Shown here: positions 10,490 to 54,176 of the stretch, piece after piece | How the letters are laid out: every line of letters starts with the position of its first letter | How positions within the stretch are numbered: position 1 is the first letter of the stretch | NCBI GenBank assembly: GCA_027310625.1 | Contig: DAIDAM010000003.1 | Location: 67,278 to 131,277 of the forward strand | DNA: 64,000 nt | From: a bacterium | Lineage (GTDB): Bacteria > Patescibacteriota > Minisyncoccia > UBA6257 > 2-01-FULL-56-20 | Reading direction: 5' to 3' | Translations under genes and position numbers: made by a program | Notes under the pieces: generated by a model | What the model was told of the DNA's origin: nothing | Database searches by the model: none | Seen by the model: only the letters and a program-made list of their open reading frames with translations

Positions 10490-11992
10490 CTATCTGATTG
10501 TGCCCCCGCCGAGCATTTCGTATTTCTCTGGTTTCTGGTCTCTGGTCTCTGGTCTCTTATAGTAGAACACAGCCGACTGACCTGCGGCGACGAACTTCTG
10601 CCCCTGCTCAAAGATGAGCAGCGCGGATTTGCGCGGATTAGACGCTGATTTGCGCGGATTTTTATCTGCGTTTATCTGCATATCGTCTGCGGGCATCAGC
10701 GTTGCAGGCGCGAGCGGTTGTCTGTACCTCACCCGCGCCAACACCTTATACCCCTTATTCGCACGAATTAGGGGTATAGTTTCCGAGTTGATGAAATTCA
10801 CATCGTGGAGTTTAATTTCTTTTCTGTACAACGCCGAATTGTCGCTCCCTTCTGCTACCACAAGCGTATTTGTTTCAACGTTTTTCTCAGCAACATAAAG
10901 CGGCTTGAAATCCGTTTTCTGCATAAGTCCGCGTTCTGTCTGTGTAAGTCCGCGATTGGTCATGCCAATATGTCTCTGCCCAATGGTGTAAAAATGCGCG
11001 CCGGAATGCCTGCCGATTTCTTCTCCGGCGGTATTCAAAACCGCGCCTTCTCTCGCGGGAAGATAACCGCCCAAAAACTCGGCGAGCGTAACTTTGCCGA
11101 GAAAGCAAATTCCCTGCGAATCTTTTTTCTCCGCCGTAGGCAAACCGGCTTTTCTCGCCATCGCCCGCACTTCTGACTTCAAATAATTGCCTATCGGGAA
11201 AAGGCAGTGTTGCAATTGCTCTTGCGTCAACGTCCAGAGAAAATATGACTGGTCTTTTTGCGCGTCACGCGCAGCGTATAGTTTATAACCATAACTCGAA
11301 TCTACGAATGTGCGCGAATTTGGCGAATTTAAAAAACTTTTATATTCGTTATATTCGCGCGAATTCGCGATATTCGAATTACGCATAAGCCGCACGTAGT
11401 GCCCGGTCGCCACGTAAATCCCTGCCTGCCGGCAGGCAGGCGCTCCCACGGACAGCGCTTTTTCCAAAAAGAGCCCGAACTTAATTTCCTTGTTGCACAT
11501 CACGTCCGGGTTGGGAGTAATGCCGCGGCGGTAACCGTCAACCATATAAGCGACGACTTTCTTTTTATATTCCTCCTCGAAATCCCAGATATAAAAAGGG
11601 ATTTCGAGTTTGCCGGCGACGCGGCGTGCGTCCTCGGCGTCTCTTTCCGCCTGACATTCATCGTCAAAATTTCCGCGCCCATCCGCGTTGAAATCCGCGT
11701 TAATCCGCGTGTTGGACGAAGTCCAACATTTCATAAAAACGCCGACGACATCGTAGCCATGGTTTTTAAGAAGCATGGCGGCGACTGAGGAATCAACCCC
11801 TCCACTCATTGCTACGAATACCTTTTTTTTACAAGCAAAGCCGCCAGCCTGCCTGCCATAGCCCTCGCCTTGCCGAAGCCGACGGCGAAGCGCAGGTTGG
11901 CGAAGGCGGGACATCCCCGCAAAAACTTTTTCTTTCCGTTTCTTCATGCGCCTATTTTTACATCGTCTTCTCCAATATATCAAATAAAACAA
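10490..11992 (-). CDS. mnmA: tRNA-specific 2-thiouridylase MnmA, with several in-frame repeat-derived insertions and a repeat-derived N-terminal extension
   Basis: SGGVDSS PP-loop, conserved MnmA core; low-complexity inserts (NPRKSASNPRKSAL, ETRDQKPEKYE). Confidence 0.85.
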   Translation of the reverse strand: MFYLIYWRRRCKNRRMKKRKEKVFAGMSRLRQPALRRRLRQGEGYGRQAGGFACKKKVFVAMSGGVDSSVAAMLLKNHGYDVVGVFMKCWTSSNTRINADFNADGRGNFDDECQAERDAEDARRVAGKLEIPFYIWDFEEEYKKKVVAYMVDGYRRGITPNPDVMCNKEIKFGLFLEKALSVGAPACRQAGIYVATGHYVRLMRNSNIANSREYNEYKSFLNSPNSRTFVDSSYGYKLYAARDAQKDQSYFLWTLTQEQLQHCLFPIGNYLKSEVRAMARKAGLPTAEKKDSQGICFLGKVTLAEFLGGYLPAREGAVLNTAGEEIGRHSGAHFYTIGQRHIGMTNRGLTQTERGLMQKTDFKPLYVAEKNVETNTLVVAEGSDNSALYRKEIKLHDVNFINSETIPLIRANKGYKVLARVRYRQPLAPATLMPADDMQINADKNPRKSASNPRKSALLIFEQGQKFVAAGQSAVFYYKRPETRDQKPEKYEMLGGGTIR

Positions 11993-17635: not shown

Positions 17636-17735
17636 TATTATCGCACGAATTTACGAATCTTTACGAACATACGAATTTACAGTAAGTAAAATTTAATCTA
17701 TTCGTAAGTTCGTAATTTATTCGCTTATTCGTGCG
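17636..17735. repeat. intergenic palindromic element, ACGAATTTACGAA…TTCGTAAGTTCGT family
   Basis: long imperfect inverted repeat. Confidence 0.6.
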
Positions 17736-17739
17736 ATGC

Positions 17740-19185: not shown

Positions 19186-19195
19186 TTTTGATGTA

Positions 19196-19278
19196 TCGCG
19201 CGAATTTACGAATTTTTACGAACATACGAATTTACGGTGAGCATAATAGAAGTTATTCGTAAGTTCGTAATTCATTCG
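19196..19278. repeat. intergenic palindromic element, ACGAATTT family
   Basis: inverted repeat nearly identical to 17636-17735. Confidence 0.6.
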
Positions 19279-19279
19279 C

Positions 19280-19963
19280 TTATTCGTGCGATTTTATTCT
19301 TTTAAACACTTCCCCTTTGTATATCCAGACCTTGATTCCTATCGTCCCGTAAGTCGTAAAAGCAGTGGCTTGGCCGTAATCAATGTCGGCGCGGAGATTT
19401 TGAAGAGGCAGGGCTCCTCTTTTGAGGGACTCTTCTCTTGCTATTTCGGCTCCGTTTAATCTTCCTGACAAAGTTATTTTGACGCCCTTCACTTCTTTAT
19501 TTTGCGCAACCTGCTCCAGATATTTTTTCATTGCTCTTCTGAAAGGAAAACGCTTTTCCAGATCCCAGGCGATTTGCTGGGCAACATAAGGGGCGGCAAT
19601 TTCGGATTTTTTCAACTCCTCCACATTAACACTCAGGCTAACACGGTTTTTAACTTTTCTTTCTTTTCTAATCGTTTCCTCAAGTTCCTTTGTAAAGTCC
19701 TCTATCCCTTTTCCGCCGCGCCCGATTATAAGGCCCGGCCTTGCGGCTTTTATCACGACTTTGAGATTGTTCGTTGTACGCTCTATTTCAATTGACGCAA
19801 TCCCCGCCAACCCGAATTTTTTTCTGATGAGTTTTCTTATAATCTCATCTTCGGCAAGATACTTCGCATACGAACGCCCCCCTTTGCCGTGCAAAAACCA
19901 GCGGACCGGCCAGTCCTTTATTATGCCTATGCGAAGCGATTGTGGATTTATTTTCTGTCCCAT
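19280..19963 (-). CDS. rpsC: 30S ribosomal protein S3; the upstream 22 codons of the ORF lie in a MITE and are probably not translated
   Basis: S3 KH/C-terminal domains; start MGQKINP. Confidence 0.92.
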   Translation of the reverse strand: MGQKINPQSLRIGIIKDWPVRWFLHGKGGRSYAKYLAEDEIIRKLIRKKFGLAGIASIEIERTTNNLKVVIKAARPGLIIGRGGKGIEDFTKELEETIRKERKVKNRVSLSVNVEELKKSEIAAPYVAQQIAWDLEKRFPFRRAMKKYLEQVAQNKEVKGVKITLSGRLNGAEIAREESLKRGALPLQNLRADIDYGQATAFTTYGTIGIKVWIYKGEVFKRIKSHE

Positions 19964-28528: not shown

Positions 28529-29003
28529 TGATTTATCGCACGAATTTACGAATCTTTACGAACATACGAATTATTATTAACAATTCTCTTAAAAATAACA
28601 CCTTTAGACGTAAAATTTGCTAGGATGGCGAGTGGCAAATTGCTTGCTTTGAGATAGTTAAAAATCTGCTCCGCGTTATGACGAGAAAACGCCACACCCT
28701 TTTTAATCTCAATTATTACTTTTTCTTCAACTAAAAAATCGCATCTTTGTCTGCCAACTGCTTTACCATGAAACATAACGGGCAACAAAACTTCTCGCCT
28801 AAATTTTAATCCTGCATCCTCGAATGCTAATGCCACTGCGCGTTGATAATAATTTTCCGAGTAACCAGAGCCGAGTGCATTGCTGACATCGAATAGCGTT
28901 CCAACAATTTTGTAGCTCAGCTCGGGCTCAATAATGTCGCTCCTTCGCAACTTTCTCTCGCTCATAATGATTCGTAAGTTCGTAATATTCGCTTATTCGC
29001 GCG
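28529..29003. repeat. ACGAATTT-family palindromic element whose two arms (28529-28560 and 28966-29003) are separated by an inserted GxxExxY gene
   Basis: left arm atcgcacgaatttacgaatctttacgaacatacgaatt; right arm attcgtaagttcgtaatattcgcttattcgcgcgat. Confidence 0.6.
28546..28965 (-). CDS. GxxExxY family protein (PD-(D/E)xK-like; the family is associated with 23S rRNA intervening sequences)
   Basis: [21 protein letters not shown]…[13 protein letters not shown] motif pattern of the GxxExxY family. Confidence 0.75.
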
Positions 29004-29004
29004 A

Positions 29005-29472
29005 TCAGCGGGCAAAGTGCGCGAACGCCCTGTTGGCTTCCGCCTGCCGGTGCATATCCAGCTTCTTTTTCACCGCGTCTCCTTCATTTTTGGCGGCGGC
29101 AATTATTTCAGCGGCAAGTTTTTCATGCATCGGTTTTCCTTTTTTCGAGCGCGCGGCGTTGACAATCCAGCGCACACCGAGGATGAAACGGCGTTCGGGA
29201 CGCACCTCGCGCGGAATCTGGTAGTTCGCGCCTCCGACACGCTTTGAAAAAACTTCCAGCATCGGCGATGCGTTTGTAAGCGCCTGCTCAAAAACGCTGA
29301 CTGGCTCTTTTTTTGTTTCTTTTTTTATTTTCTCAAAAGCGCCGTAAACCGCCTTTCGCGCCGCGCTTCTCTTCCCTTCCCTCATCACATAATTTATCAG
29401 GCGCCCCACATCAACTCGCCCGTAAAGCGAATCCGGCTGATGATGTTTTTTGTAAACTCGTTTCTTTCTCAT
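29005..29472 (-). CDS. rpsG: 30S ribosomal protein S7
   Basis: S7 signature. Confidence 0.93.
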   Translation of the reverse strand: MRKKRVYKKHHQPDSLYGRVDVGRLINYVMREGKRSAARKAVYGAFEKIKKETKKEPVSVFEQALTNASPMLEVFSKRVGGANYQIPREVRPERRFILGVRWIVNAARSKKGKPMHEKLAAEIIAAAKNEGDAVKKKLDMHRQAEANRAFAHFAR

Positions 29473-29550
29473 TTAAGTATCGCACGAATTTACGAATTTT
29501 TACGAACATACGAATTCGTAAGTTCGTAATATTCGCTTATTCGAGCGATT
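29473..29550. repeat. intergenic palindromic element, ACGAATTT family
   Basis: cgcacgaatttacgaatttttacgaacatacgaattcgtaagttcgtaatattcgcttattcgagcg. Confidence 0.6.
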
Positions 29551-37838: not shown

Positions 37839-37860
37839 CTAAGGAAGTCCGACTTCCTAA
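37839..37860. repeat. REP-like palindrome (ctaaggaagtccgacttcctaa)
   Basis: member of the TTAGGAAGTCGGACTTCCTAA family. Confidence 0.7.
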
Positions 37861-37876
37861 ATGTTATAATTACAGC

Positions 37877-38578
37877 ATGACGAGACCGCGAATAATTCGG
37901 AACGAAATTTACCATGTCCTTAACCGTGGCGTAGATAAGCGAGCAATTTTCTCAGACGATAACGACCGCCTGCGGTTTATTCATAACCTCTTTGAGTTTA
38001 ACGACACCGCACCTGCACCCAATCTCGCCTACCATCTCGGCAAAAAACAATCTAAGGAAGTCGGACTTCCTAAGATTGAGAGGAGACGGCGGGAACTTTT
38101 GGTGGAAATTCTCGCGTTTTGCATGATGAAAAATCACTATCATCTTTTGGTCAGGCCGAAGGCTGATAATTTTCTAACGTTATTTATGAGAAAACTGGGA
38201 ACAGGGTACACCAATTATTTTAATCAAAAATATAAGCGGAGCGGAGCGCTTTTCCAAGGGAAATACAAAGTGGTGCACATTAACAATGATAGACATTTTA
38301 TTCATCTCCCCTACTACATTCACTTTAATCCATTAGACGGCTTTGCTCCGAGTTGGAGAGAAAAGGAAATAAAGGACCACAAAAAAGCAATGGAATTTTT
38401 GGAGAACTATCGCTGGAGCAGTTTTCCGGACTATATCGGCAGGAAAAATTTTCCTTCAATCACGCAAAGAGAATTTTTACTAAAGTTTTTCGGCGGCCCG
38501 GAGGAATACAAACGCAAAACGACAGAATGGCTAAAAGCAATCGATTTCGAGGCAATACACGACGTTGCACTAGAATAA
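37877..38578 (+). CDS. REP-associated tyrosine transposase (RAYT, IS200-like Y1 transposase); contains an internal REP copy at 38052-38074
   Basis: HxH motif (NHYHLLV) and catalytic Tyr region (LPYYIHFNP); flanked by REP palindromes. Confidence 0.8.
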   Translation: MTRPRIIRNEIYHVLNRGVDKRAIFSDDNDRLRFIHNLFEFNDTAPAPNLAYHLGKKQSKEVGLPKIERRRRELLVEILAFCMMKNHYHLLVRPKADNFLTLFMRKLGTGYTNYFNQKYKRSGALFQGKYKVVHINNDRHFIHLPYYIHFNPLDGFAPSWREKEIKDHKKAMEFLENYRWSSFPDYIGRKNFPSITQREFLLKFFGGPEEYKRKTTEWLKAIDFEAIHDVALE

Positions 38579-38585
38579 TTAATAA

Positions 38586-38606
38586 TTAGGAAGTCGGACT
38601 TCCTAA
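38586..38606. repeat. REP palindrome TTAGGAAGTCGGACTTCCTAA (perfect)
   Basis: perfect 21-bp palindrome. Confidence 0.8.
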
Positions 38607-38623
38607 GAAAAAAACAAGCGGCG

Positions 38624-38878
38624 TTAGTCGTAAATGTCTTTGCGATGGCCAATGGCAAAAAATACCGCTTTATCGTCTCTAAAATAAAAAAGCGCCCGAT
38701 AGCGGCGTGTGATACGAAAAGAAAACACGCCGGGAAGTTCTTTGTTCCTTTTGGTGTGCAATCTTGGGTCGAGCCAATTTTTCTTGAAGATGTTTTCCTG
38801 CCGATTGAAAAGTTTCCTTATTTCCGAGGGTAATTTACCTAAATCACTGACAAAATCCGGTGTCTTATGGACAACCAT
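38624..38878 (-). CDS. RelE/ParE family toxin
   Basis: …FRITRRYRALFYFRDDKAVFFAIGHRKDIY fits the RelE/ParE C-terminal pattern. Confidence 0.7.
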   Translation of the reverse strand: MVVHKTPDFVSDLGKLPSEIRKLFNRQENIFKKNWLDPRLHTKRNKELPGVFSFRITRRYRALFYFRDDKAVFFAIGHRKDIYD

Positions 38879-38900
38879 TTTTGGTTTTTTAATGCCTGAC

Positions 38901-39089
38901 TCAGGAAGATTTTACGCTCTTGAGATAATTTTTCCTGATTTGAGAAGAGTTCTTATATTCTTTCAAACTTTCTTCAGGAATCAAAAGCAAAAACTTTCCG
39001 AGCTGGTCGCGGATAGCCCTGATTTCAACCAAAAGGTTCTTCAAGACAATGCCCTGCTCTCTATTTTCAGTTGTAGTTTTAGTGGTCAT
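38901..39089 (-). CDS. putative antitoxin for the downstream RelE/ParE toxin
   Basis: 62-aa ORF immediately upstream of the toxin. Confidence 0.4.
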   Translation of the reverse strand: MTTKTTTENREQGIVLKNLLVEIRAIRDQLGKFLLLIPEESLKEYKNSSQIRKNYLKSVKSS

Positions 39090-39184
39090 AGTGATATGGT
39101 AGCAAAACTACAAACGTACAGCAAGTTTTTCTGCTACCATTATATCACAATTGTTGCTTAATGGTAACGGGTAATTATTTGTGG

Positions 39185-39206
39185 CTTAGGAAGTCGGACT
39201 TCCTGA
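39185..39206. repeat. REP palindrome copy
   Basis: cttaggaagtcggacttcctga. Confidence 0.75.
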
Positions 39207-39209
39207 ATA

Positions 39210-39458
39210 TCATCTCGGATGTTTCATTATCGTTAAAATTCTGTAAGCGTCTTTCTCGATTGTAAAATAAAATCTATAGCTCCTGCTGATTCGCGCCTGC
39301 CAAACATTTTCTGCTTCATCGTATTTCTTGGCGCGTAGCGAGGGATGCATAAAATTCTTTGAAAGCAAGGAGAACTGCTTATCGGCTGCTTTCTGCAGAT
39401 TTTTGGGCAAGCCGTTGTAATCGCGAACAGCCCTTTCTGAAAAACTTAACCTCATCAT
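39210..39458 (-). CDS. RelE/ParE family toxin
   Basis: …WQARISRSYRFYFTIEKDAYRILTIMKHPR. Confidence 0.7.
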   Translation of the reverse strand: MMRLSFSERAVRDYNGLPKNLQKAADKQFSLLSKNFMHPSLRAKKYDEAENVWQARISRSYRFYFTIEKDAYRILTIMKHPR

Positions 39459-44621: not shown

Positions 44622-44744
44622 ATTTTAATTTTTTTATAAGCCCGTTATGCGAACCTTTAAGGGTAATTTTACAATATGGAGCGGGAAAGAGATAAAGGGA
44701 GTTATTCACAACCGCCGAAGAACTTAGAACTTGGAGCTTGGAGC

Positions 44745-45170
44745 TTAGGGCTTGGAATTCGGTGTTTTTTTATGGAGCTTGGCGCGGAGAGCTTGAATTT
44801 GTCTCATCAAAACAAGATAGCGGTTTCGCAAATTGTCATGTTCCTGTTCTGTGACATACTCTAATTTAAATGCCAAAGTAAGCGCGGTCAGCACTTCGTT
44901 AATCGAAGTTGCCGCCATCATAAGAAAATGCAGAAACTCTCTTGTTCCCCTCCCGCTTCCCTCCGCTATGTTGAAAGACACAGAAGATGCGGCTCTTCGC
45001 AGTTGGCTCGTCAACCCAAAAAGTTCGCCTTTCGGAAATTTCGAAGTAGTTTTATAAACCTCCAGCGCCAATTCCATACTTTCTTGCCAAATTCGCAATT
45101 TTTCATAATTTGGAGCAGAGTCCTTTAGACTCAAGCTTGGGTCTTGGTTCTTGGAACTTAGTTCACTCAT
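44745..45170 (-). CDS. four-helix-bundle protein (TIGR02436-type)
   Basis: LRIWQESMELALEVYK…NIAEGSGRGTREFLHFLMMAATSINEV; flanked by CTTGGAA-type heptamer repeats. Confidence 0.8.
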   Translation of the reverse strand: MSELSSKNQDPSLSLKDSAPNYEKLRIWQESMELALEVYKTTSKFPKGELFGLTSQLRRAASSVSFNIAEGSGRGTREFLHFLMMAATSINEVLTALTLAFKLEYVTEQEHDNLRNRYLVLMRQIQALRAKLHKKTPNSKP

Positions 45171-45271
45171 TATTTAATTATTTAATTTTTAGTGTTGCAT
45201 TTGGACAAGTTTCAACTTCAAAAACAAATTTCCAAGTTCCAAGCTCTAAGTTCCAAGTTCCAAGCTCCGCT

Positions 45272-46123
45272 TCAGTAAATCGTTCTCCAAGAGTAAGCGT
45301 TGGATGAGTCCTTGGCGCAAACCGTTACGGCATCTTTTGTTCCGGAAGCCGACTGCGTGACCCAGAAGGCACCCCTTTGCGAGGTGTCGCAAGTCGGCTG
45401 AGCGACCGTAGTATTGAGCCGCAAGCCGCCGTTCACCTCCAGAGTTTGTCCGGGACTGGAAACGCCGATGCCCACGTTCGAACCGCTGAAGTAAATTATG
45501 TCGTTTATTGACTGCCATATTTGCGACGAAGCGCCGATTTTGTAGGTGTTGGAAGTCGCGGGGACGACGTTGGAGTCAAAGGTTGCCGCGCCCACGCGCG
45601 CGACAGAAATGCTGAGCGACTGGAGGAACGACTGCTTAATATTCGTCGCGTTGTAGGACATCGTGAAATTGACGTTCACGCTGTCACGCCCGCCGGGGTT
45701 CACGCGCTTCGTGAAAGAAAGGTCGGAGACAATCACTTTGTTTGACGTCAGCGGCTGTTCCGTTCCGCTGTCGGTTTGCTTGAGATAAACCGTTCCGCCA
45801 GTCATATAAATGTATGTCGGGTCAACTGTGGAGGAAGACATCCGGAGTTTTAGTGTCGTTGACGCGGCGTCCGAAGCCATTTCAATCAGCGCCGAGGAAT
45901 TGACGTAGTATTGTATCGTGTCCAAAAGAAGCTGGCTTTGCTGGTTGACTTCGGCAGCGGCGTTTTGCCTCGTCTGCACCTGCACGGAGGAAACAAGCAG
46001 CGTGAGAAAAGTAATCGCGACGATGGAAAAAATGGCGGAGAAAATCAGGAGCTCAATGATGGTGAATCCGCGGGCAGAACTTAGGACTTGGAACTTGGAA
46101 CTTAGCGAATTTCTGAAGTGCAT
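45272..46123 (-). CDS. type IV pilin-like protein (prepilin N-terminal methylation motif GFTIIELLI) with a C-terminal NVGIGVSSPGQTLEV motif shared with the 39994-41952 protein
   Basis: class III signal peptide; shared fibre motif. Confidence 0.65.
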   Translation of the reverse strand: MHFRNSLSSKFQVLSSARGFTIIELLIFSAIFSIVAITFLTLLVSSVQVQTRQNAAAEVNQQSQLLLDTIQYYVNSSALIEMASDAASTTLKLRMSSSTVDPTYIYMTGGTVYLKQTDSGTEQPLTSNKVIVSDLSFTKRVNPGGRDSVNVNFTMSYNATNIKQSFLQSLSISVARVGAATFDSNVVPATSNTYKIGASSQIWQSINDIIYFSGSNVGIGVSSPGQTLEVNGGLRLNTTVAQPTCDTSQRGAFWVTQSASGTKDAVTVCAKDSSNAYSWRTIY

Positions 46124-46191: not shown

Positions 46192-46384
46192 GGCCCCATC
46201 GTCTAACGGTCAGGACATCGGCTTTTTTCACCCCGCACCAAATCCTAGGGCCCTGTCGTCTAGTCTGGTCTAGGACACGAGCTTTTCAAGCTCGGTACAC
46301 GGGTTCGAATCCCGTCGGGGCTGCACAAAATTTGGTGCGGGGCAAGAGCCGGTAACCGGGGTTCGACTCCCCGTGGGGCTGCCA
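46192..46384 (+). tRNA. interrupted tRNA-like gene. 5' part at 46192-46230; 3' part at 46343-46384 (T-arm TTCGACT, acceptor, G73, CCA encoded). A ~112-nt insert lies in the anticodon loop. D-arm is Glu/Gln-like; anticodon unresolved.
   Basis: acceptor ggcccca/tggggct, D-stem gtc/gac, anticodon stem tcggc/gccgg, T-stem cgggg/ccccg; insert contains a 9-bp helix ccccgcacc/ggtgcgggg. Confidence 0.5.
46249..46323 (+). tRNA. tRNA-Glu (anticodon TTC), complete, nested within the insert of the 46192-46384 tRNA-like gene
   Basis: cloverleaf closely parallel to E. coli tRNA-Glu (gtc tag…gac D-arm; stem cgagc/gctcg with loop ttttcaa; T-loop ttcgaat; G73). Confidence 0.7.
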
Positions 46385-46385
46385 A

Positions 46386-48944
46386 ATGTATCGCTTTTTA
46401 GAAATTTTTCCCGGAGCGCTTTCGTGGCTGACTCTTATCTTACTTGTTTCTCTTTCCCGCTACGCGCCGGCGTTCGTCGCCGTTTTCATCATACTTTTTG
46501 ACATCTACTGGCTTTTGAAAACGATTTATCTCTCGCTGCATCTCCGCTCAACTTTTTCGGTTATGAAAAAAAACCTGAAGGTGAACTGGCTCAATGAGCT
46601 GAAGGCACTGCCGCATAATCCCAATGGCCCGAATAGAATCCAAATGCCCCGAATTATAGAAAAGGATCTCTCTTATAAACTAAGCGGGGTTTTCTTCAAA
46701 GTTCATAACCAACTCGGCAGGTTCTGCAGAGAGCGTCAATATGGCGATGCCGTCGCAAAGGAACTTGAATCCCTCGGCGTAAATTTTCAGCGCGAAGTTG
46801 CCGTTGCGGTCGCCGGGCGAAAATCCAATTTCGTAGATTTTGTCGTTGAAAGCAAAATCGCAATAGAACTGAAGACGAAAGACATAATTGACAAAGAAGA
46901 TTATTTCCAACTTCAAAGATACCTTAAAGCGCTGGGATTGGAATTGGGCATAATAGTCAACTTTAGAAGAAAACACTTGAATCCCAAACGCGTTCTCAAT
47001 TCTGACTTCCTTTACAAGTATTCGGCTGATTCAGATACATTCGGCAATTCGGATTATGTGGTCAATAGATATTCGGACAATTCGGATTCATTCGGATATT
47101 CGGATTATGTGAAATCCTGGGAAGACATTTATCATTTGGTGATATTGCCGATGTACCGCGAGCCGTACGAGGTCGTGAAAGGAAGTTTTGAAAGCATATC
47201 TAAAGGAAACTATCCGCTGGAAAAGTTAATTGTCGTCCTGGCGACGGAAGAACGCGCCGGCGCCGAAGCGAGGAAAACGGCTGAGAAAATCAGGCGCGAG
47301 TTCGGCGGCAAATTTTTCAAGTTTTTGATTACCACGCACCCCGCGAATCTCCCCGGCGAAATTCCCGGCAAGGGTTCCAACGAAACCTGGGCGGCGAAAG
47401 AGGCGAAAAGATTAATCATTGACCCACTGGTCAATGCGCAGACCTACGCAGACAACACGCAGACCGACGCAGAAAACGATTTTCTGTATCCAGACCTGAC
47501 ATATGAAATCAGAGGTGCGATATTTTCCATTAAGAAAAAGCTCGGCCTCGGACACAAAGAAGTTGTTTATCAAAAAGCACTGGAAGAGGAATTTAATCGA
47601 CTAGGTTTGAATTTCGAAAAAGAAAAAACGGTGGATATTGCATATAATAACAAAAAAGTTGGTGTCTACCGCCCAGATTTTGTAATTGAGGATAAAATTA
47701 TTTTGGAACTGAAGGCATTACCATTTATGGGCAAATATGAAAAAAGGCAAGTTTGGCAGTATTTAAAAGGAACGGAATATAAACTAGCTATGTTGGTAAA
47801 CTTCGGCGGTAGCGATATTCGCATAGATAGAATAGTTTACGACACAGCTCGCGCAAGTCAGCGTAAGTCTGCGTTAAGTCAGCGAGAGTCAGCGCTGAAA
47901 TATGAAAATGTTTTAGTGTCGGTTTTCGACATTGACACACAGATATTTCCGGAGTATTTCGGGCGCCTCACATATGTCTTTTTGAAATCCGAAGACAAAT
48001 TGCAGGCGATTTACCAGCCGATACCGCTTTTCATAAATAACATCTACGACGCGCCGGCGCTCGCGCGCGTGATTTCCTTTTCAAGCACCTTCTGGCAGAT
48101 GATGCAGCAGTCGCGGCCGGAACGGCTGACGTCTTTTTCGTCGCAGTCAATCCCCTTGCGGGCGCTCATTGACATCGGCTACTGGCACAAAAACGTCGTC
48201 TCCGAGGACTCGCGGATTTTCTGGCAGTGCTATCTCCGCTATCACGGGAACTTCCGCGTCGAACCGCTTTTTTACCCGGTTTCGATGGACGCCAACGCCG
48301 CGCCGACATTTTGGAGAACGCTCAAAAATAATTACTTGCAGCACCGCCGCTGGGCCTGGGGCTGCGAAAACATTCCCTACTTGCTCTGCGGCAAACATAA
48401 TCCGAATCCACGAATGCATCCGAATAACACGAATAGGAGTCCAGATAATAAATTAGATTCGGAACATTCGGATAGATTCGGGGATTCGGATTATGCGGAG
48501 GGTTTCCTCCACAACAAAAAAATCCCTCTCCGCAAAAAGCTCTACTGGTCGTTCAATGTAATTGAAGGATTCCATTCCTGGGCGACGAACGCGCTGATAA
48601 TTTTCGCTCTCGGCTGGCTGCCCGTTCTTTTGGGCGGAGAAGGTTTCGGGATTTCCATTTTGTCGCGGAGCCTGCCTTCGATTACAAGATTCATCATTCA
48701 ACTCTCGATGGTCGGAGTCGCCACCGCCGCTTTCTTCAGCATTCTTCTTCTGCCGCCGCGAAAAGAACCTCTCGAATGGCATCAGTATATTTGGTATCTC
48801 CTCCAATGGCTTCTTCTGCCCGCGACACTCATAATTTTCGGGTCCATCCCCGCGCTCGAGGCGCAAACGCGGCTGATGGTCGGCGGAAAATGGCGGCTCG
48901 GATTCTGGCCGACGCCGAAAACGAGAACCAATAATAGAAGCTAG
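46386..48944 (+). CDS. processive family-2 glycosyltransferase (cellulose-synthase-like; GKGxN, DxD, Q(H)RRW motifs) carrying two in-frame GxxExxY domain insertions (~46644-47000 and ~47481-47840) plus heptamer-repeat tracts
   Basis: GT2 motifs VILPMYREP, GKGSNETWAAKEA, VFDIDTQ, QHRRWAWG; inserted segments each align with the free-standing GxxExxY gene at 28546. Confidence 0.8.
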   Translation: MYRFLEIFPGALSWLTLILLVSLSRYAPAFVAVFIILFDIYWLLKTIYLSLHLRSTFSVMKKNLKVNWLNELKALPHNPNGPNRIQMPRIIEKDLSYKLSGVFFKVHNQLGRFCRERQYGDAVAKELESLGVNFQREVAVAVAGRKSNFVDFVVESKIAIELKTKDIIDKEDYFQLQRYLKALGLELGIIVNFRRKHLNPKRVLNSDFLYKYSADSDTFGNSDYVVNRYSDNSDSFGYSDYVKSWEDIYHLVILPMYREPYEVVKGSFESISKGNYPLEKLIVVLATEERAGAEARKTAEKIRREFGGKFFKFLITTHPANLPGEIPGKGSNETWAAKEAKRLIIDPLVNAQTYADNTQTDAENDFLYPDLTYEIRGAIFSIKKKLGLGHKEVVYQKALEEEFNRLGLNFEKEKTVDIAYNNKKVGVYRPDFVIEDKIILELKALPFMGKYEKRQVWQYLKGTEYKLAMLVNFGGSDIRIDRIVYDTARASQRKSALSQRESALKYENVLVSVFDIDTQIFPEYFGRLTYVFLKSEDKLQAIYQPIPLFINNIYDAPALARVISFSSTFWQMMQQSRPERLTSFSSQSIPLRALIDIGYWHKNVVSEDSRIFWQCYLRYHGNFRVEPLFYPVSMDANAAPTFWRTLKNNYLQHRRWAWGCENIPYLLCGKHNPNPRMHPNNTNRSPDNKLDSEHSDRFGDSDYAEGFLHNKKIPLRKKLYWSFNVIEGFHSWATNALIIFALGWLPVLLGGEGFGISILSRSLPSITRFIIQLSMVGVATAAFFSILLLPPRKEPLEWHQYIWYLLQWLLLPATLIIFGSIPALEAQTRLMVGGKWRLGFWPTPKTRTNNRS
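47000..47115. repeat. ATTCGGA/ATTCGGC heptamer-type repeat tract encoding …DSDTFGNSDYVVNRYSDNSDSFGYSDY… inside the GT2 gene; a similar tract at ~48405-48490
   Basis: period-7 direct repeats. Confidence 0.7.
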
Positions 48945-48959
48945 AATATAGAATTTAGA

Positions 48960-50172
48960 ATGAAAAAAATAAAAACGATTCTCGCGATTGAAACAAGTTG
49001 CGACGAAACGGGGATTGCTCTTGTTGAAGCGAAAGGTGGTTTTGCTTCGCCGAAATTCAGAGTCCTGAAAAACCTCGTGAGTTCACAGATAAAAATTCAC
49101 CGTCCTTTCGGCGGCGTCGTGCCGGGACTCGCCAAGCGCGAACACATCAAGAATCTTCCGAAACTTTTTCGGAAGATTCTTGTAAATTCTAAATCCGGAA
49201 TCCGGAATCCGAAACAAATTTCAAATTTCAAATTTCAAACATTGATTTAATTGCCGTCACCGTCGGTCCCGGGCTTGAACCGGCGCTGTGGACGGGAATA
49301 ACTTTTGCGCAAGAATTGCGCAAGCGACTAGCAACCAGAGACCAGAGACAAGAAAAGAAAATAAAAATTATCGGAGTGAACCATTTAGAAGGACATCTCT
49401 ACAGTTTTCTTTTGCGGCAGCAAAAGAAAACTGCAAATCAGAAATCAGAAATCAGAAACGTAAAAATTTGGGATTTCATGCTTCAAATTTGAGATTTCCA
49501 GCTATTGTTTTGCTGGTGAGCGGCGGACATACGGCTCTTCTCTTGATGAAAAATTTAAGAAAATGGAAAAAACTCGGGGAAACGCGGGATGACGCGGCGG
49601 GCGAAGCATTCGATAAAGTCGCAAGAATGCTCGGCCTCCCCTATCCCGGCGGTCCGGAAATCGAAAAACTGGCGAAAGAAGGTGACGCAGACGCGATAAA
49701 TTTTCCGCGCCCGATGCTCAACCAGAAAAATTACGATTTCAGTTTTTCGGGAATAAAAACGGCGGTATTTTACTATCTTAGAGACCGAATCTCTTACGAA
49801 AATACGAAAACATACGAAAGTACCAAAACGAAAAATAAATTTCGTAATTTCGCGCCGTTTCGTACTTTCGTAAGTAAGGCCGATATCGCCGCTTCGTTTC
49901 AAAAGGCGGTCGTTGAAACACTTGTCAAAAAAGTGGAACGGGCGGCGAAAGAATACGGGGCGTGCTCGCTCATTCTCTGCGGCGGAGTTGCGGCGAACAA
50001 GGTGTTGCGCGAAAATATGCGAAAAGCTGCTCACAAAATAAACGCGGAATTCATCGCGCCGCCGATGGAATACAACAACGATAACGCTGCGATGATTGCG
50101 GCCGCGGGATATTTCGCCTCGCTCCGGAGCAGAAAATTGCCGCTCAAGGCCGACGGCGATTTGAATATATAG
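48960..50172 (+). pseudogene. tsaD: tsaD (tRNA N6-threonylcarbamoyladenosine synthesis, Kae1/YgjD family) split into three reading frames by two -1 frameshifts, each inside a heptamer-repeat tract (49186-49240; 49425-49492)
   Basis: N-terminal ([11 protein letters not shown]…[16 protein letters not shown]) in frame 0; middle ([12 protein letters not shown]…VNHLEGHL) in frame 2; C-terminal (FPAIVLLVSGGHT…DDAAGEAFDKVARMLGLPYPGGP…) in frame 1. Confidence 0.75.
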
Positions 50173-50214
50173 TCATGTTAATCTTAAATTCTCAACAATC
50201 TCAAATTCTCAACT

Positions 50215-50250
50215 TGTTAACATTTTACGCGATCGCGTAAAATGTTAACA
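50215..50250. promoter_or_regulatory. 36-bp perfect palindrome TGTTAACATTTTACGCGATCGCGTAAAATGTTAACA
   Basis: perfect inverted repeat; a second near-identical copy at 50819-50853. Confidence 0.6.
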
Positions 50251-50304: not shown

Positions 50305-50811
50305 TTAAATTATCTCGGCTTCTTTTGCCTCAAAAAATTTAATATATGGGAAAAGTTGAAGTTTTCTCAAAGATTCGACAAATTGTTCCGGCAATGGCGC
50401 CGGTCCAAGCCATAAACTCTTTTGAAGCATCTCGAATCCAAGACATAAAAGCTCGGCTCTCAACCAATCGCGTTTTTTCTTATGTATCTCTGGGACATCA
50501 AAAGAAATGACAATACTTTTGGGATTTCGCTTGGCAGTTTTTTCGCTGTGGGTCGGGAAAAGAGAAATTTTGTTTGCAAAGTATCCGCGCCCGGCTTTTG
50601 TAAGCCGCCATATACCCTTTTTATTTTCTACAAATCCCCTCTTTTTGAGACGTGAAAGTGTAACACGTATCGCAGAATCAGAAGCATCCTCAAAACCGCG
50701 ATAAATTCTACCATCAGAAAAAGGACTTGCACCGCTTAATTTTCTGCGCATCAAACGATAGCCGTCGTGATAACTGAATAAAATAGTCAAGATGTCATCC
50801 GTTAATCCCAT
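50305..50811 (-). CDS. winged-helix regulator-like protein (PaaX-like N-terminal HTH: RVTLSRLKKRGFVENKKGIWRLTKAGRGYF); function unknown
   Basis: wHTH-like segment; gene bracketed by two copies of a 34-36 bp palindrome. Confidence 0.45.
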   Translation of the reverse strand: MGLTDDILTILFSYHDGYRLMRRKLSGASPFSDGRIYRGFEDASDSAIRVTLSRLKKRGFVENKKGIWRLTKAGRGYFANKISLFPTHSEKTAKRNPKSIVISFDVPEIHKKKRDWLRAELLCLGFEMLQKSLWLGPAPLPEQFVESLRKLQLFPYIKFFEAKEAEII

Positions 50812-50818
50812 TTCAAAA

Positions 50819-50853
50819 TATTAACATTTTCAGCGATCGCGTAAAATGTTAAT
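50819..50853. promoter_or_regulatory. second copy of the TTAACATTTT(C/A)(A/C)GCGATCGCGTAAAATGTTAA palindrome
   Basis: near-perfect inverted repeat. Confidence 0.6.
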
Positions 50854-50864
50854 AAAAATTTTCA

Positions 50865-53800
50865 TTGAAAAGATTGAACAGGTTGAGACAATCCCTTAAA
50901 ATAAAATCAATGTCGGAGATTTTGGAACCGCGATACGACCACCAAAAGCACGAAAAGGAAATTTACGAACTCTGGGAAAAGAGCGGGTATTTTAATCCGG
51001 ATAATTTGCCTACGGCAAGTTCGGAGTTCGGAGTTCGAAGTTCGAAGAATAAAAAAATATCTCAAACGAAACCTCGAACCTCGAACCTCGAACCGTTTTC
51101 CATTATCATGCCTCCGCCGAACGCGAACGGCTCGCTACATCTCGGGCACGCCGTGTTCGTCGCGTTGCAGGACATACTCATAAGATTCTGGCGCATGCGC
51201 GGCAAAAAAGCGCTCTGGCTTCCGGGGGCGGACCACGCCGGCTTTGAAACGCAGGTTGTCTTCGACAAAAAACTTGAAAAGGAAGGGCGGAATAGATTCA
51301 CCATTCCGCGCGAGGAACTTTTCAAAGAAATCTGGGACTTCACCCAGCACAATAAAAAAATAATGGAAGAGCAGTTGCGTAAACTCGGAGCGTCGTGCGA
51401 CTGGAGCCGCGAAAAATTCACGCTTGACCCGGCAATCATTAGAATCGTCTATGAAACTTTTGAAAAACTTTACAAGGACGGACTTCTTTACCGCGATTTG
51501 CGCGTCGTCAACTGGTGTCCGAAACACAAAACCGCGCTCTCCGACCTGGAAGTGAAGCACGAAGAGCGTCTGGACCAGCTCTACTACATAAAGTATGGGC
51601 CACTAACATTAGCGACAGTGAGACCGGAAACGAAATTCGGCGACACGGCGCTTGCCGTGAACCCGAAGGACAAACGCTATTCAAAATACATCGGAAAAGA
51701 AATACGCGCCTTGGGCCTGCTCGGCAAACTCACATTCAAAGTCATCGCCGACGAAGCCGTTGACCCGAAATTCGGGACGGGGGTCATTAAGGTCACGCCC
51801 GCGCATGACCCCGCGGACTTTGAAATCTGGCAAAGGCACAAAAAAGAAATTCCCGGTCCGAAAATAATCATTGACGAAAACGGGCGGCTTACCGGCGAAA
51901 CAGGAAAATTCGCAGGGATGAAAGTCGCGGAAGCGAGAATAAAAGTCGCCGAAGCGATGAAAGAAATCGGCATTCTTGAAAAAGTTGAGAACGATTACAA
52001 ACACTCCGTTGCCGTCTGCTACAAGTGCGGCAACGTGCTCGAGCCGATTCCGAAGATGCAATGGTTCATCGCCATGACGGCGAAACCGCATCAATCAAGA
52101 GACCGGAGACCGGAGACTGGAGACCGGAAAAAATCGTTGCGCGATTTGGGAATCGAGGCAGTTGAAAAGAAAAAAATAAAATTTTATCCGGCGCATTCCA
52201 AAAAAGTCATTCTTCATTGGCTGAAAAATATCCGCGACTGGAACATTTCGCGGCAAATCGTCTGGGGCATAAGAATCCCCGTCTGGTACTGCCTCGCCTG
52301 CTCCGCCCGCCCCGAGAGCAATCGAGGGGAGCCGAAGATAAACATTAATCAGGAAGTGAAATCGCGCTGGTTTCTCGTAAGGCACGGGGAAACGGATTGG
52401 AACAAGGAAGGACGCATAATGGGACAATCCGACATTCCACTCAATAAAACTGGGATGGCGCAGGCGGAAGAAGCCGCGCGGGAATTAAAGCCGCACAAGG
52501 TAGATCTTATTATAAGTTCTGACTCGGCGCGCTGTCGCCAAACTGCGGAAATAATTAAAAAAGAGACGGGCGCGGAAATAATCCTCGAAAAAAAATTAAG
52601 AGAGCGCCACCACGGAGACATCGAGGGATTGCTACGAAAGGATGTTTTTGAACAATATCCCCGTATTTACGAATACAGCTACGAAGGCAAATATATGAAT
52701 GCCGAAAGCTATCGCGAATTGGAAGAGCGCGCATGGGAAGTTTTCTCGTCGCACCATTCAAGGCACGGCCATAAAAACGTCGTTTTGATTACGCACGGTG
52801 GGACGATTAGGATGCTTATAAAAAGAATAAAAAATCTTACTCCGGAAGCGGCTCTCTCAATACCTTCCAGAAAAAACGCGGAGATAATCCAGCTTGACGT
52901 TTTGGATAAATGCGAAAATTGCGGCGGACATTTTTACGAGCAGGACCCCGACGTTTTTGACACCTGGTTCTCGTCCGGGCAATGGCCGTTTGCGACGCTG
53001 ATGACGAGCGACAAAAAAATGGGTTTCCATGAAGAAGTTGTCCCGCAGGTTTTGGACGGCAAAACCAAGACATACCGCTTGCGCGACCACGGATTCAAGG
53101 TCGGCGACAAGGTTTTGTTTGAAAACTCCGCTACCAAAAAAATCTTCGGATATGGAATTATCACGGAAGCAAAAAAAACCACGATAGACAAAATAGATTA
53201 CACAGACAAAAGCCATTACAAAACCTATAAAAATCTGGACGAGTTGATGACGGCGTTCAAACACAAGAACCCAGAAAAAACTTTTACTTCCAAATCTCCT
53301 GCTTATCTTTACGCTTACGATTTTTACCCGGCGAAAAATTTGGAGACCGACTTCGAAACTTTTTATCCGACCGATGTGATGGAAACCGGATACGACATAC
53401 TTTTCTTCTGGGTGGCGAGGATGGTCATGCTCGGAATTTACACGACGGGAAAAATTCCTTTCAGAACTGTTTATCTCCACGGCTTGGTTCTCGACAAAGA
53501 CAAAAAGAAAATGTCCAAGTCCAAAGGCAACGTTATTGACCCGCTCGGCGTCGCCGAAATTTACGGAAGCGACGCGCTCCGCATGGCGCTGGTCGCCGGC
53601 AACACCGCCGGCAAGGATATCGTCATCTCCGAAGACAAAATCCGCGGCTACAGGAATTTTGCGACGAAAGTGTGGAACATCAGCCGATTCATTTTAATGA
53701 ATAAAATGAAAGACATCAGACATCAGACATCAGACATCAGGGTAAAATTAACGGCTTCAGACAAAAAAAATATTGCGGAAGCCGAAAAAATCAAAGATAA

Positions 53801-54176
53801 AGTCGGAAAACACATTGAAAAATTCGAGTTTCATCTCGCGGCGGAAACGGCATACCATTACATCTGGCATACCTTCGCCGACAAAATAATTGAAGAATAT
53901 AAGCCGCGACTAAAAGCCGAAACGGGTTCCGAGGAAGCTCTCGGAGGCGCGGCGAGCTCGGCATCCGGAGGATTCGCCGCGCCGAGAGCGCAGGCGGGCG
54001 CTCGCCGCAGGAGCGAGCGAACCGCCGATTCCGAGGGGCCCGTTGCGGCTTATCAAACACTGGAAGCAATTCTTCTGGAATGCTTGAAAATGCTCCATCC
54101 GTTTATGCCGTTCATAACGGAGGCGATATTTCAGAAGCTAAACAAAGGAGAAATGCTGATGATAGAAAGATGGTAA
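50865..54176 (+). CDS. valS: valine-tRNA ligase with an embedded histidine-phosphatase (PGAM-like) domain (~52360-52910), a second ~100-aa insertion, heptamer tracts and a GC-rich C-terminal insertion
   Basis: HIGH (PPPNANGSLHLGH) and KMSKS motifs, editing domain; insert has RHGETDWN, RERHHGD and ITHGG motifs of the histidine phosphatase superfamily. Confidence 0.9.
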   Translation: MKRLNRLRQSLKIKSMSEILEPRYDHQKHEKEIYELWEKSGYFNPDNLPTASSEFGVRSSKNKKISQTKPRTSNLEPFSIIMPPPNANGSLHLGHAVFVALQDILIRFWRMRGKKALWLPGADHAGFETQVVFDKKLEKEGRNRFTIPREELFKEIWDFTQHNKKIMEEQLRKLGASCDWSREKFTLDPAIIRIVYETFEKLYKDGLLYRDLRVVNWCPKHKTALSDLEVKHEERLDQLYYIKYGPLTLATVRPETKFGDTALAVNPKDKRYSKYIGKEIRALGLLGKLTFKVIADEAVDPKFGTGVIKVTPAHDPADFEIWQRHKKEIPGPKIIIDENGRLTGETGKFAGMKVAEARIKVAEAMKEIGILEKVENDYKHSVAVCYKCGNVLEPIPKMQWFIAMTAKPHQSRDRRPETGDRKKSLRDLGIEAVEKKKIKFYPAHSKKVILHWLKNIRDWNISRQIVWGIRIPVWYCLACSARPESNRGEPKININQEVKSRWFLVRHGETDWNKEGRIMGQSDIPLNKTGMAQAEEAARELKPHKVDLIISSDSARCRQTAEIIKKETGAEIILEKKLRERHHGDIEGLLRKDVFEQYPRIYEYSYEGKYMNAESYRELEERAWEVFSSHHSRHGHKNVVLITHGGTIRMLIKRIKNLTPEAALSIPSRKNAEIIQLDVLDKCENCGGHFYEQDPDVFDTWFSSGQWPFATLMTSDKKMGFHEEVVPQVLDGKTKTYRLRDHGFKVGDKVLFENSATKKIFGYGIITEAKKTTIDKIDYTDKSHYKTYKNLDELMTAFKHKNPEKTFTSKSPAYLYAYDFYPAKNLETDFETFYPTDVMETGYDILFFWVARMVMLGIYTTGKIPFRTVYLHGLVLDKDKKKMSKSKGNVIDPLGVAEIYGSDALRMALVAGNTAGKDIVISEDKIRGYRNFATKVWNISRFILMNKMKDIRHQTSDIRVKLTASDKKNIAEAEKIKDKVGKHIEKFEFHLAAETAYHYIWHTFADKIIEEYKPRLKAETGSEEALGGAASSASGGFAAPRAQAGARRRSERTADSEGPVAAYQTLEAILLECLKMLHPFMPFITEAIFQKLNKGEMLMIERW

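Follow-up and report, generated by a model that had tools for sequence, protein, structure and literature searches.

Three inserts in a glycosyltransferase gene of an uncultured bacterium of the Patescibacteriota, which belong to the candidate phyla radiation (CPR), are probably members of a family of palindrome-armed cassettes that are selfish and mobile and that are read through in translation, becoming part of their host protein. The gene, a family 2 glycosyltransferase (GT2), lies at 46386-48944 on the plus strand of the stretch of 64,000 nucleotides (nt) analyzed here, which we call the window (GCA_027310625.1, contig DAIDAM010000003.1, positions 67,278-131,277 of the forward strand). A full cassette consists of a 5' arm in which a motif of 6-8 nt recurs three to four times at intervals of about 10 nt, an open reading frame (ORF) of about 120 codons for a GxxExxY nuclease of the PD-(D/E)xK type, and a 3' arm with the inverted motif array. 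In intergenic spacers the cassettes carry their own ATG; within genes they are always sense-oriented, in-frame, free of stop codons and located in loops or linkers. The family is common in Patescibacteria (Liptonbacteria/Paceibacteria-type genomes), widespread within dozens of housekeeping genes that it does not break, and apparently undescribed. The evidence consists of a recurrent architecture, a lineage-specific distribution over insertion hotspots, the in-frame constraint, the cognate pairing of arms and multi-copy relatives in the same genome.

The host ORF is intact and encodes 852 amino acids (aa), of which 500 remain as the core after removal of the three inserts. Translation, Pfam, orthologues and structure prediction identify it as a processive membrane GT2 of the cellulose/hyaluronan/chitin-synthase type, an assignment that comes mainly from the predicted fold. 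The motifs VILPMYREP, GKGSNETW, VFDIDTQ and QHRRWAWG, quoted in an initial annotation of this DNA, are all found in the translation (D, DxD, QxxRW), and the match to Pfam Glyco_trans_2_3 is weak (26.3 bits, below the gathering score of 27; E=7.8e-6). An AlphaFold2 (AF2) model reaches a predicted local distance difference test score of 78.7 overall and of more than 90 in the core; its best Foldseek matches are synthases of hyaluronan, cellulose and chitin (HAS, BcsA, CesA and Chs; E down to 5e-7), and it places transmembrane helices on either side of the GT-A domain. In this model both nucleases fold as separate, independent domains, the first on disordered linkers and the second on a helical stalk, and the GT2 core is undisturbed. 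The alignment used for the prediction (A3) was free of stand-alone GxxExxY sequences, which misaligned when they were added to the GT2 alignment (A2).

Inserts 1 (46614-47108; 495 nt, 165 aa) and 2 (47436-47897; 462 nt, 154 aa) are both in-frame and stop-free; together with insert 3 (48396-48494; 99 nt, 33 aa), an in-frame hairpin without ORF, they comprise 352 codons, all on the plus strand. The first two are flanked on either side by inverted arrays of short motifs, CCGAAT/ATTCGG in insert 1 and CGCAGAC/GTCWGCG in insert 2. The upstream arm of insert 1 (46614-46655) reads CATAATCC(C/G)AAT..., with four (C)CNAAT motifs in addition to CATAATCC, and encodes the peptide HNPNGPNRIQMPR. Its cargo (46641-47030) is a type-1 GxxExxY/PDDEXK_3 nuclease domain with an intact D..ELK and without a start or stop codon of its own. 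Two tandem ATTCGG arrays follow (47020-47109), each terminated by GGATTATG; the first (47020-47058) pairs with the 5' arm, the second (47071-47109) is an extra solo arm, and the downstream arm runs to ATTCGGATTATG. In insert 2, four copies of CGCAGAC about 10 nt apart (47436-47477, peptide AQTYADNTQTDAEN) precede a type-2 nuclease domain (47469-47867, with GHKEVVY and D..ELK), and four copies of GTC(A/T)GCG end the element (47853-47897, peptide ASQRKSALSQRESAL). Insert 3 shares its termini, CATAATCCGAAT...ATTCGGATTATG, with insert 1. The short repeats that the initial annotation had reported downstream of the two nuclease segments are real, yet they are half of the picture, as an inverted array precedes each insert too. 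Apart from these 5' arms, it had overlooked insert 3, the same architecture at a free-standing copy of the nuclease gene and four ORF-less hairpins elsewhere in the window.

Pairing between the arms is strong. Arm-to-arm duplex energies amount to -38.0 kcal/mol in insert 1 (z=-4.8 against shuffles) and -42.9 kcal/mol in insert 2 (z=-6.4), and the hairpin of insert 3 has a free energy of -44 kcal/mol (z -6.6); overall, the z values of arm-to-arm pairing span -4.8 to -10.4, well beyond chance. Arms were tested against each other because the ORF dominates the fold of a whole insert, as seen in the weak signal for insert 1 when folded entirely as RNA (z -0.48). A window-wide RNALfold scan was unspecific, with almost every 130-nt segment at -25 to -50 kcal/mol, and hairpins were located by motif-cluster and inverted-repeat searches.

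The identity of the cargo is clear. Both PF13366 (PDDEXK_3; E=6.6e-53, 178.5 bits, cutoff 22) and TIGR04256 (GxxExxY; E=1.6e-52, 176.8 bits, cutoff 35) strongly match the GT2 ORF in two stretches. The initial annotation had aligned both segments over their full length with the free-standing gene at 28546-28965, which holds up with identities of 40% for insert 1 (E=4e-23) and 34% for insert 2 (E=3e-28); that gene encodes a single domain (105.6 bits for TIGR04256, 102.8 bits for PF13366). A hidden Markov model built from the window copies finds exactly three domains in the six-frame translation, at 46641-47030(+), 47469-47867(+) and 28549-28947(-), near the coordinates given in the initial annotation. 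All three keep the catalytic D...E-x-K (D..E(L/I)K), and the fold is restriction-endonuclease-like. The GxxExxY motif reads GHKEVVY in insert 2, GYSENYY in the free-standing copy and FCRERQY in insert 1, where the G is shifted (GRFCRERQY). The family is large, with 7,440 matching cluster representatives at E<1e-3 in a library of 50%-identity representatives, and its function is listed as unknown in Pfam-based reviews (PMC3424549). In the published literature we found no account of a GxxExxY function or of in-frame insertions of the domain; a sequence search of the PDB with the nuclease gave no match, and PADLOC and PHROGs provided no functional lead. The cassettes offer a concrete and testable role for this family.

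How these inserts come and go can be followed in orthologues of the host gene. With the 500-aa core as query, over 6,700 homologues were retrieved, and the 120 that rank highest come from Liptonbacteria, Minisyncoccia and Patescibacteria. The nuclease segments are not universal: a GxxExxY-sized insert occurs in only 9 of the 119 closest other GT2 orthologues, most of which measure 490-520 aa, and about 90% are without such domains. Insertions of 10 aa or more are concentrated behind core residues ~77, 185 and 351, the very sites of the three window inserts, which are length-variable loops in insert-free orthologues. Each hotspot is either empty or filled by a short hairpin-encoded peptide (from several unrelated sequence families) or by a nuclease insert of about 150 aa. 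Among 80 GTDB species representatives, retrieved at the DNA level and therefore free of ORF-calling bias, GT2 forms a single in-frame high-scoring segment pair in every locus; they contain 37 short inserts, mostly at the hotspots, many of which form hairpins whose z values are as low as -10.

The type-1 elements in these genes end in inverted repeats such as CGCGATGCGAAT...ATTCGCATCGCG, with arms of four GCGAAT/CCGAAT motifs about 10 nt apart. They are located at site 77 (L082, L086), at site 351 (L083) and, without ORF, at site 185 (L082), where L numbers denote loci compared at the DNA level. In a neighbour-joining tree the GT2-resident type-1 nucleases form one clade in which copies from sites 77 and 351 are interleaved, which implies that the position in the gene changed at least twice. 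ORF-less copies hold the first ~8 codons of the nuclease ORF, RIVEKELS (L081 at site 77, P0011, P0019, P0055, P0071), and therefore derive from full elements by internal deletion. In P0002, the nearest orthologue without inserts, a footprint of four residues at site 185, 'ASAL', matches the outer termini of the type-2 arms. Taken comparatively, these alleles show that cassettes have been gained and lost at permissive sites, that loss of the ORF by internal deletion leaves coding hairpins such as insert 3, and that a final, near-precise loss leaves a footprint of a few residues. Type-2 arms of the window and of L085 share 80-90% identity, compared with 44% at third codon positions of the ORF; they are more conserved than expected under neutrality and therefore constrained at the nucleotide level.

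GT2-plus-nuclease chimeras of 645-861 aa (P0027, P0045, P0067) are named 'GxxExxY protein' by NCBI and JGI, a name that hides which enzyme is the host. In public databases, many CPR entries called 'GxxExxY proteins' are RecG, LepA, GatB, glycosyltransferases and other enzymes with a parasitic domain, which matters to the annotation and metabolic reconstruction of CPR organisms.

Within genes, the frame continues straight across the cassette and no splicing device is recognisable. The nuclease would therefore be produced within the host protein as one of its domains, via the promoter and start codon of the host, and the arms would turn into linker peptides; that inserts and coding hairpins are translated is suggested by the conservation of frame. 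The paired arms also call to mind an intervening sequence (IVS) acting at the RNA level, with the two junctions held close to each other like those of a 23S rRNA IVS stem or an archaeal bulge-helix-bulge. The cassette would be cut from the mRNA, with the encoded PD-(D/E)xK enzyme or RNase III as possible agents, an enzyme such as RtcB could rejoin the exons, and the mature GT2 would be free of inserts. Such splicing would lift the constraint on frame and stop codons, and only about one third of the copies would be expected in-frame. Yet this constraint is seen in all three window inserts, in the GT2 genes of all 80 GTDB loci and in 14 of 15 complete gene-internal copies from DNA-based retrieval, which continue in-frame downstream; the one exception, L124, resembles a genuine C-terminus. 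The arms are 79% Watson-Crick paired with mismatches mostly of the transversion type, and G.U is the rarest mismatch class on the sense strand. As G.U is not enriched, selection on a sense-RNA helix is disfavoured, and the arms fit arrays of protein-binding motifs or a DNA-level structure. At gathering threshold, Rfam detects only five tRNAs in the whole window and no intron, ribozyme or rRNA, a permissive scan of 46300-49000 yielded nothing relevant, and in the relative L081 TsaD, too, reads through its hairpins in-frame. To our knowledge, no bacterial pathway that cuts and religates mRNA in this manner has been described, and we consider excision from the RNA very improbable.

Removal could also take place after translation, as in inteins, which likewise place an in-frame nuclease inside conserved housekeeping enzymes. 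However, the GT2 protein has no Hint/intein match in Pfam, and its junctions (P|HNPN...SDY|V, N|AQTY...SAL|K and K|HNPN...SDY|A, with first insert residues H77, A351 and H671 and +1 residues V, K and A) lack intein nucleophiles and a terminal His-Asn; the arms encode low-complexity linkers. Intein-like splicing is effectively refuted by the sequence, and the absence of intein motifs that had been noted by eye extends to any intein, Hint or intron signal.

The cassettes proposed here are not confined to GT2. A free-standing one at 28535-29005 (minus strand) has the arms ATCGCNCGAAT.../...ATTCGNGCGAT around the GxxExxY ORF 28546-28965. It occupies precisely the spacer between rpsG and fusA, beginning at the stop codon of rpsG and ending 6 nt short of the start of fusA, with its own ATG at the end of the 5' arm and the stop codon within the 3' arm. 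Four ORF-less hairpins of the same family are located in a ribosomal-protein operon spacer (17640-17737), in the L16-S3 spacer (19195-19292), upstream of L3 (23829-23899) and in the rpsL-rpsG spacer (29479-29549), where the arms abut with a 4-nt loop. Their arms are near-identical to those of the cassette over the whole length including the spacers between motifs, the pattern expected of an autonomous element accompanied by non-autonomous copies akin to MITEs (miniature transposable elements with inverted repeats). Further in-frame coding hairpins of the window are those in TsaD (49793-49874) and MnmA (11296-11378). In the MnmA protein (10490-11992, 500 aa), Pfam domains leave unmatched gaps, and besides this CGAAT-type hairpin the gene contains other short arrays.

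A second protein family shares the arrangement. At 44720-45267 (minus strand), an ORF for a 23S_rRNA_IVP protein (PF05635, a bAvd-like four-helix bundle; 44745-45170) lies within inverted GAACTTG/CAAGTTC heptamer arrays, and a PF05635 homologue beside GT2 in L085 (L085:2850-3400) is bracketed the same way by inverted arrays; the architecture therefore extends to another IVS-associated protein family. An array of the GAACTTG/CAAGTTC type also reaches the leader of the adjoining prepilin-like gene 45272-46123 (array at 46077-46103).

Hairpins of this kind might be generic by-products of slippage at permissive loops and spacers, in which nuclease ORFs landed or by which they were captured. The window is indeed rich in short-period arrays of unrelated motifs (127 rows in Tandem Repeats Finder and 115 inverted pairs), unrelated hairpin families occupy the same GT2 hotspots, and the IVP cargo has heptamer arms of its own. 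A generic origin does not account for the link between nuclease subtype and arm motif across many host genes and assemblies, for ORF-less copies that keep the first codons of the ORF and so derive from full cassettes, or for the near-identity of the cassette at 28535-29005 and the four window hairpins across the whole arm. We regard it as quite improbable.

The range of hosts further argues for a dispersed family of cassettes. In 28 of the 80 loci of the metagenome scan the type-1 domain is embedded in a larger ORF, with GT2, RecG (at least two sites), MnmA (L107, a full cassette), GT4, RseP/M50, an unidentified membrane protein and prepilin leaders as hosts. In type IV prepilin leaders the cassette is found just upstream of the motif for cleavage, G|FTLIE, and the host peptidase is therefore expected to free the nuclease from the mature pilin. 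Cassettes fused in-frame to the prepilin N-terminus, upstream of a G|FT(L/M)IE site, are seen in L092, L100, L102, L109 and L122.

For type 2, we searched 1.84 billion cluster representatives exhaustively with HMMER; a word-indexed search with the insert-1 domain gave 45 free-standing proteins only, missed the embedded ones and is uninformative on hosts. Nearly all of the ~45 closest type-2 representatives are proteins of 225-907 aa with an internal domain, and the 61 long proteins among the 150 best matches match 44 Pfam families, among them RecG, LepA/EF-G-like GTPases, GatB, transketolase, Wzy, GT1/GT2/GT4 and RtcB. Many proteins of ~260-280 aa consist of two tandem GxxExxY domains (e.g. 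P0200, P0204, P0210, P0216). In every host the type-2 domain lies between TQTxAD... and ...QRxSAxSQRESA peptides, which are the translated CGCAGAC/GTCTGCG arms, and type-1 domains always lie between CCGAAT/ATTCGG arrays. Arm motif thus tracks domain type across hosts, and nuclease subtype and arm motif are therefore cognate. None of 20 loci of free-standing GxxExxY relatives contains rRNA, and the association with 23S rRNA intervening sequences that the initial annotation had ascribed to the family is not seen among them. Natural insertions of 120-150 aa that are tolerated by dozens of enzymes, with linkers encoded by palindromes, could be useful in protein engineering.

Since the window is part of a metagenome-assembled contig and the neighbouring TsaD gene is frame-broken in its repeats, an assembly chimera or a pseudogene open by chance should be considered. 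The architecture recurs, however, in independent NCBI, JGI, ENA and Logan assemblies, the host core of insert-bearing orthologues is under purifying selection, and 352 stop-free in-frame codons are unlikely to arise by chance; an artefact is extremely improbable.

Purifying selection also acts strongly on the nuclease, which is maintained as a protein: nonsynonymous divergence is low (pN 0.11-0.25) and synonymous sites are saturated (pS 0.67-0.92). In orthologous type-2 inserts, pN of 0.11-0.17 (pS saturated at 0.67-0.82) is similar to the 0.07-0.12 of the GT2 core. This selection, together with the long vertical co-divergence with the host gene, the retained catalytic residues and the host-specific clade of GT2-resident copies, would suit a domesticated or integral domain that is kept for the benefit of the cell, either as part of the host proteins or in a shared cellular process. 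We consider such a cellular role unlikely. About 90% of the close orthologues do without the domain and are nevertheless conserved, and the domain occurs in at least 44 unrelated Pfam contexts, some of them enzymes unconnected with DNA. In addition, intergenic free-standing copies have the same arms, ORF-less and footprint stages exist, and conservation of inverted arm motifs at the nucleotide level is unexpected for a mere protein linker.

The selfish cassette thus remains the best explanation of the inserts, and a route for its spread can be proposed. The nuclease would recognise its own cognate arm motif or an empty site and cut the DNA, and recombinational repair would then copy the cassette. 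The arms would provide homology, through which family members reduced to ORF-less hairpins could be filled again, and selection would retain only in-frame insertions in tolerant loops. We infer mobility from comparative patterns in the sequences.

Several observations weigh against this explanation. No transposition or homing event was seen, nor did we find two near-identical genomes that differ in a single cassette. The junctions inspected show neither a target-site duplication nor a target motif in common. The GT2-resident nucleases form one clade, and movement between host genes must therefore be rare. At site 185, type-2 co-diverges with its host over a span of saturated synonymous sites and therefore behaves like a domain that is inherited stably and under selection, an unusual trait in a homing endonuclease that is purely parasitic; the copy in P0067 has lost the catalytic Asp. 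A role of the hairpins as sense RNA is not supported, with 74 G.U against 126 A.C mismatches, and the arms may act as DNA binding sites or as a DNA stem. Translation through the inserts accommodates the frame-broken TsaD of the window only as an error, a variant or a pseudogene. The cassette model does not account for the lack of target-site duplications, for vertical persistence over a long time under selection, for A.C mismatches outnumbering G.U or for the use of tandem short-motif arrays as arms.

More tentatively, and short of favouring it, we put forward a broader proposal. GxxExxY cassettes and, judging from their architecture, PF05635 cassettes could together be an unrecognised class of bacterial mobile elements, palindrome-armed, nuclease-encoding, devoid of self-splicing and translated inside essential genes; they could mobilise cognate ORF-less hairpins in trans and explain a substantial share of lineage-specific insertions and short-repeat hairpins in the proteins and operon spacers of Patescibacteria; and rRNA IVSs, RPE-like coding palindromes and cassettes could be one type of element.

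The Rickettsia palindromic elements (RPEs) invoked in this proposal were reportedly described by Ogata et al. in 2000 as selfish DNA in protein-coding genes, a topic also treated in PMC1779305 and PMC10969869. Like the cassettes, RPEs are multi-copy palindromes that lie in-frame and are translated at tolerant sites of conserved housekeeping genes, and they are also found between genes. Insert 3, the TsaD and MnmA hairpins and the short inserts of orthologues are palindromic, multi-copy and in-frame in ORFs in just this way. RPEs differ in that they measure 100-150 bp, contain no ORF and have no known autonomous partner, and they show no sequence relationship to the cassettes. Inserts 1 and 2 each hold a complete nuclease ORF, full cassettes carry the nuclease gene in-frame and their arms are arrays of short motifs, so that the resemblance to RPEs is confined to insert 3 and the remaining ORF-less hairpins. 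Since 2000 it has been asked how elements of the RPE kind move, and the cassettes are a candidate autonomous partner for in-frame coding palindromes.

Intervening sequences of 23S rRNA genes can likewise contain an ORF, as in the Coxiella IVS with S23p (PMC4990558), and a survey of rRNA insertions in CPR bacteria lists LAGLIDADG, GIY-YIG and 23S_rRNA_IVP only (PMC11270868). They share with the cassettes an extended stem that closes a loop with a small ORF, and PF05635 shares the bracketing by inverted arrays in the window and in L085. Unlike the cassettes, which are found in the coding sequence of mRNA or in spacers of operons and are read through, they reside in rRNA helices (helix 9, 25 or 45), with the window being free of rRNA, and are excised by RNase III without religation.

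Inteins and homing-endonuclease genes are similar in that a nuclease ORF lies in-frame in helicases, GTPases or ligases, often beside conserved motifs. Their sporadic distribution among orthologues, with degenerate and empty stages side by side, is also that of the cassettes, which occur sporadically at fixed sites of a conserved gene together with empty and degenerate alleles. In contrast to inteins, the cassettes have no splicing domain and stay in the protein, their arms are inverted motif arrays, which inteins lack, and their nuclease is PD-(D/E)xK rather than LAGLIDADG, HNH or GIY-YIG.

MITEs with their autonomous partners, and repetitive extragenic palindromes with their associated tyrosine transposases (REP/RAYT), resemble the cassettes in having terminal inverted repeats, ORF-bearing and many ORF-less copies, and internal deletions. 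The terminal inverted repeats of the cassettes are ATCGCNCGAAT...ATTCGNGCGAT, CATAATCCGAAT...ATTCGGATTATG and CGCGATGCGAAT...ATTCGCATCGCG. In contrast, no DDE or HUH gene is found within the elements and no target-site duplication is seen; instead, the cargo is a restriction-endonuclease fold of ~120 aa and, within genes, the frame is constrained. Nucleases of the Cas4/RecB family are structural neighbours of GxxExxY, which differs in its size of ~120 aa, the lack of an Fe-S cluster module and the lack of a CRISPR context.

The tsaD gene of the window (48960-50172), directly 3' of GT2, has two -1 frame changes (at ~49183-49240 and ~49410-49495), each within a heptamer-repeat hairpin and each mendable by one added 7-nt unit, and the third hairpin (49793-49874) is in-frame. 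The TsaD of L081 (L081:2242-2841) reads through the same hairpin sites in-frame, and the window gene is therefore an assembly error in the number of repeats, a variant within the population or a pseudogene. Programmed -1 frameshifting was considered and rejected: the heptamer A AAT TTC is in frame at the first site, none is present at the second, and the relative is in-frame. Across the 64 kb, the tandem and inverted arrays counted above are extremely dense; they mostly have a period of 7-10 nt and many unrelated motifs, and they occur in spacers and coding sequence alike, usually as inverted pairs.

Other features of the window concern different kinds of insertion or repeat. In a ValRS-like class I aminoacyl-tRNA synthetase (50865-54176, 1103 aa), a complete His_Phos_1 (histidine phosphatase) domain (aa 503-680) lies between two CxxC motifs, and the protein has a further insert of ~100 aa and short repeat-encoded inserts. 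We rejected the His_Phos_1 insertion as a cassette-type element, as there are no inverted arms around the domain; it is a different kind of insertion. An IS200-like Y1 (HUH) transposase gene (37877-38578, a weak Pfam match) lies in the region 37839-39210 amid copies of the palindrome GGAAGTCGGACTTCC (37839-37866, 38051-38073, 38580-38617 and 39175-39210), reminiscent of a REP/RAYT arrangement. Directly 5' of the GT2 start, following tRNA-Glu (46249-46324), the segment 46330-46385 contains a partial tRNA 3' half, GGTTCGACTCCCCGTGGGGCTGCCA, which may be the remnant of an integration or duplication event. Finally, a gene with a PaaX_M/Cas2-like domain (50305-50811, minus strand) is located between two copies of the palindromic 35-nt sequence TTAACATTTTACGCGATCGCGTAAAATGTTAA (50214-50248 and 50821-50855).

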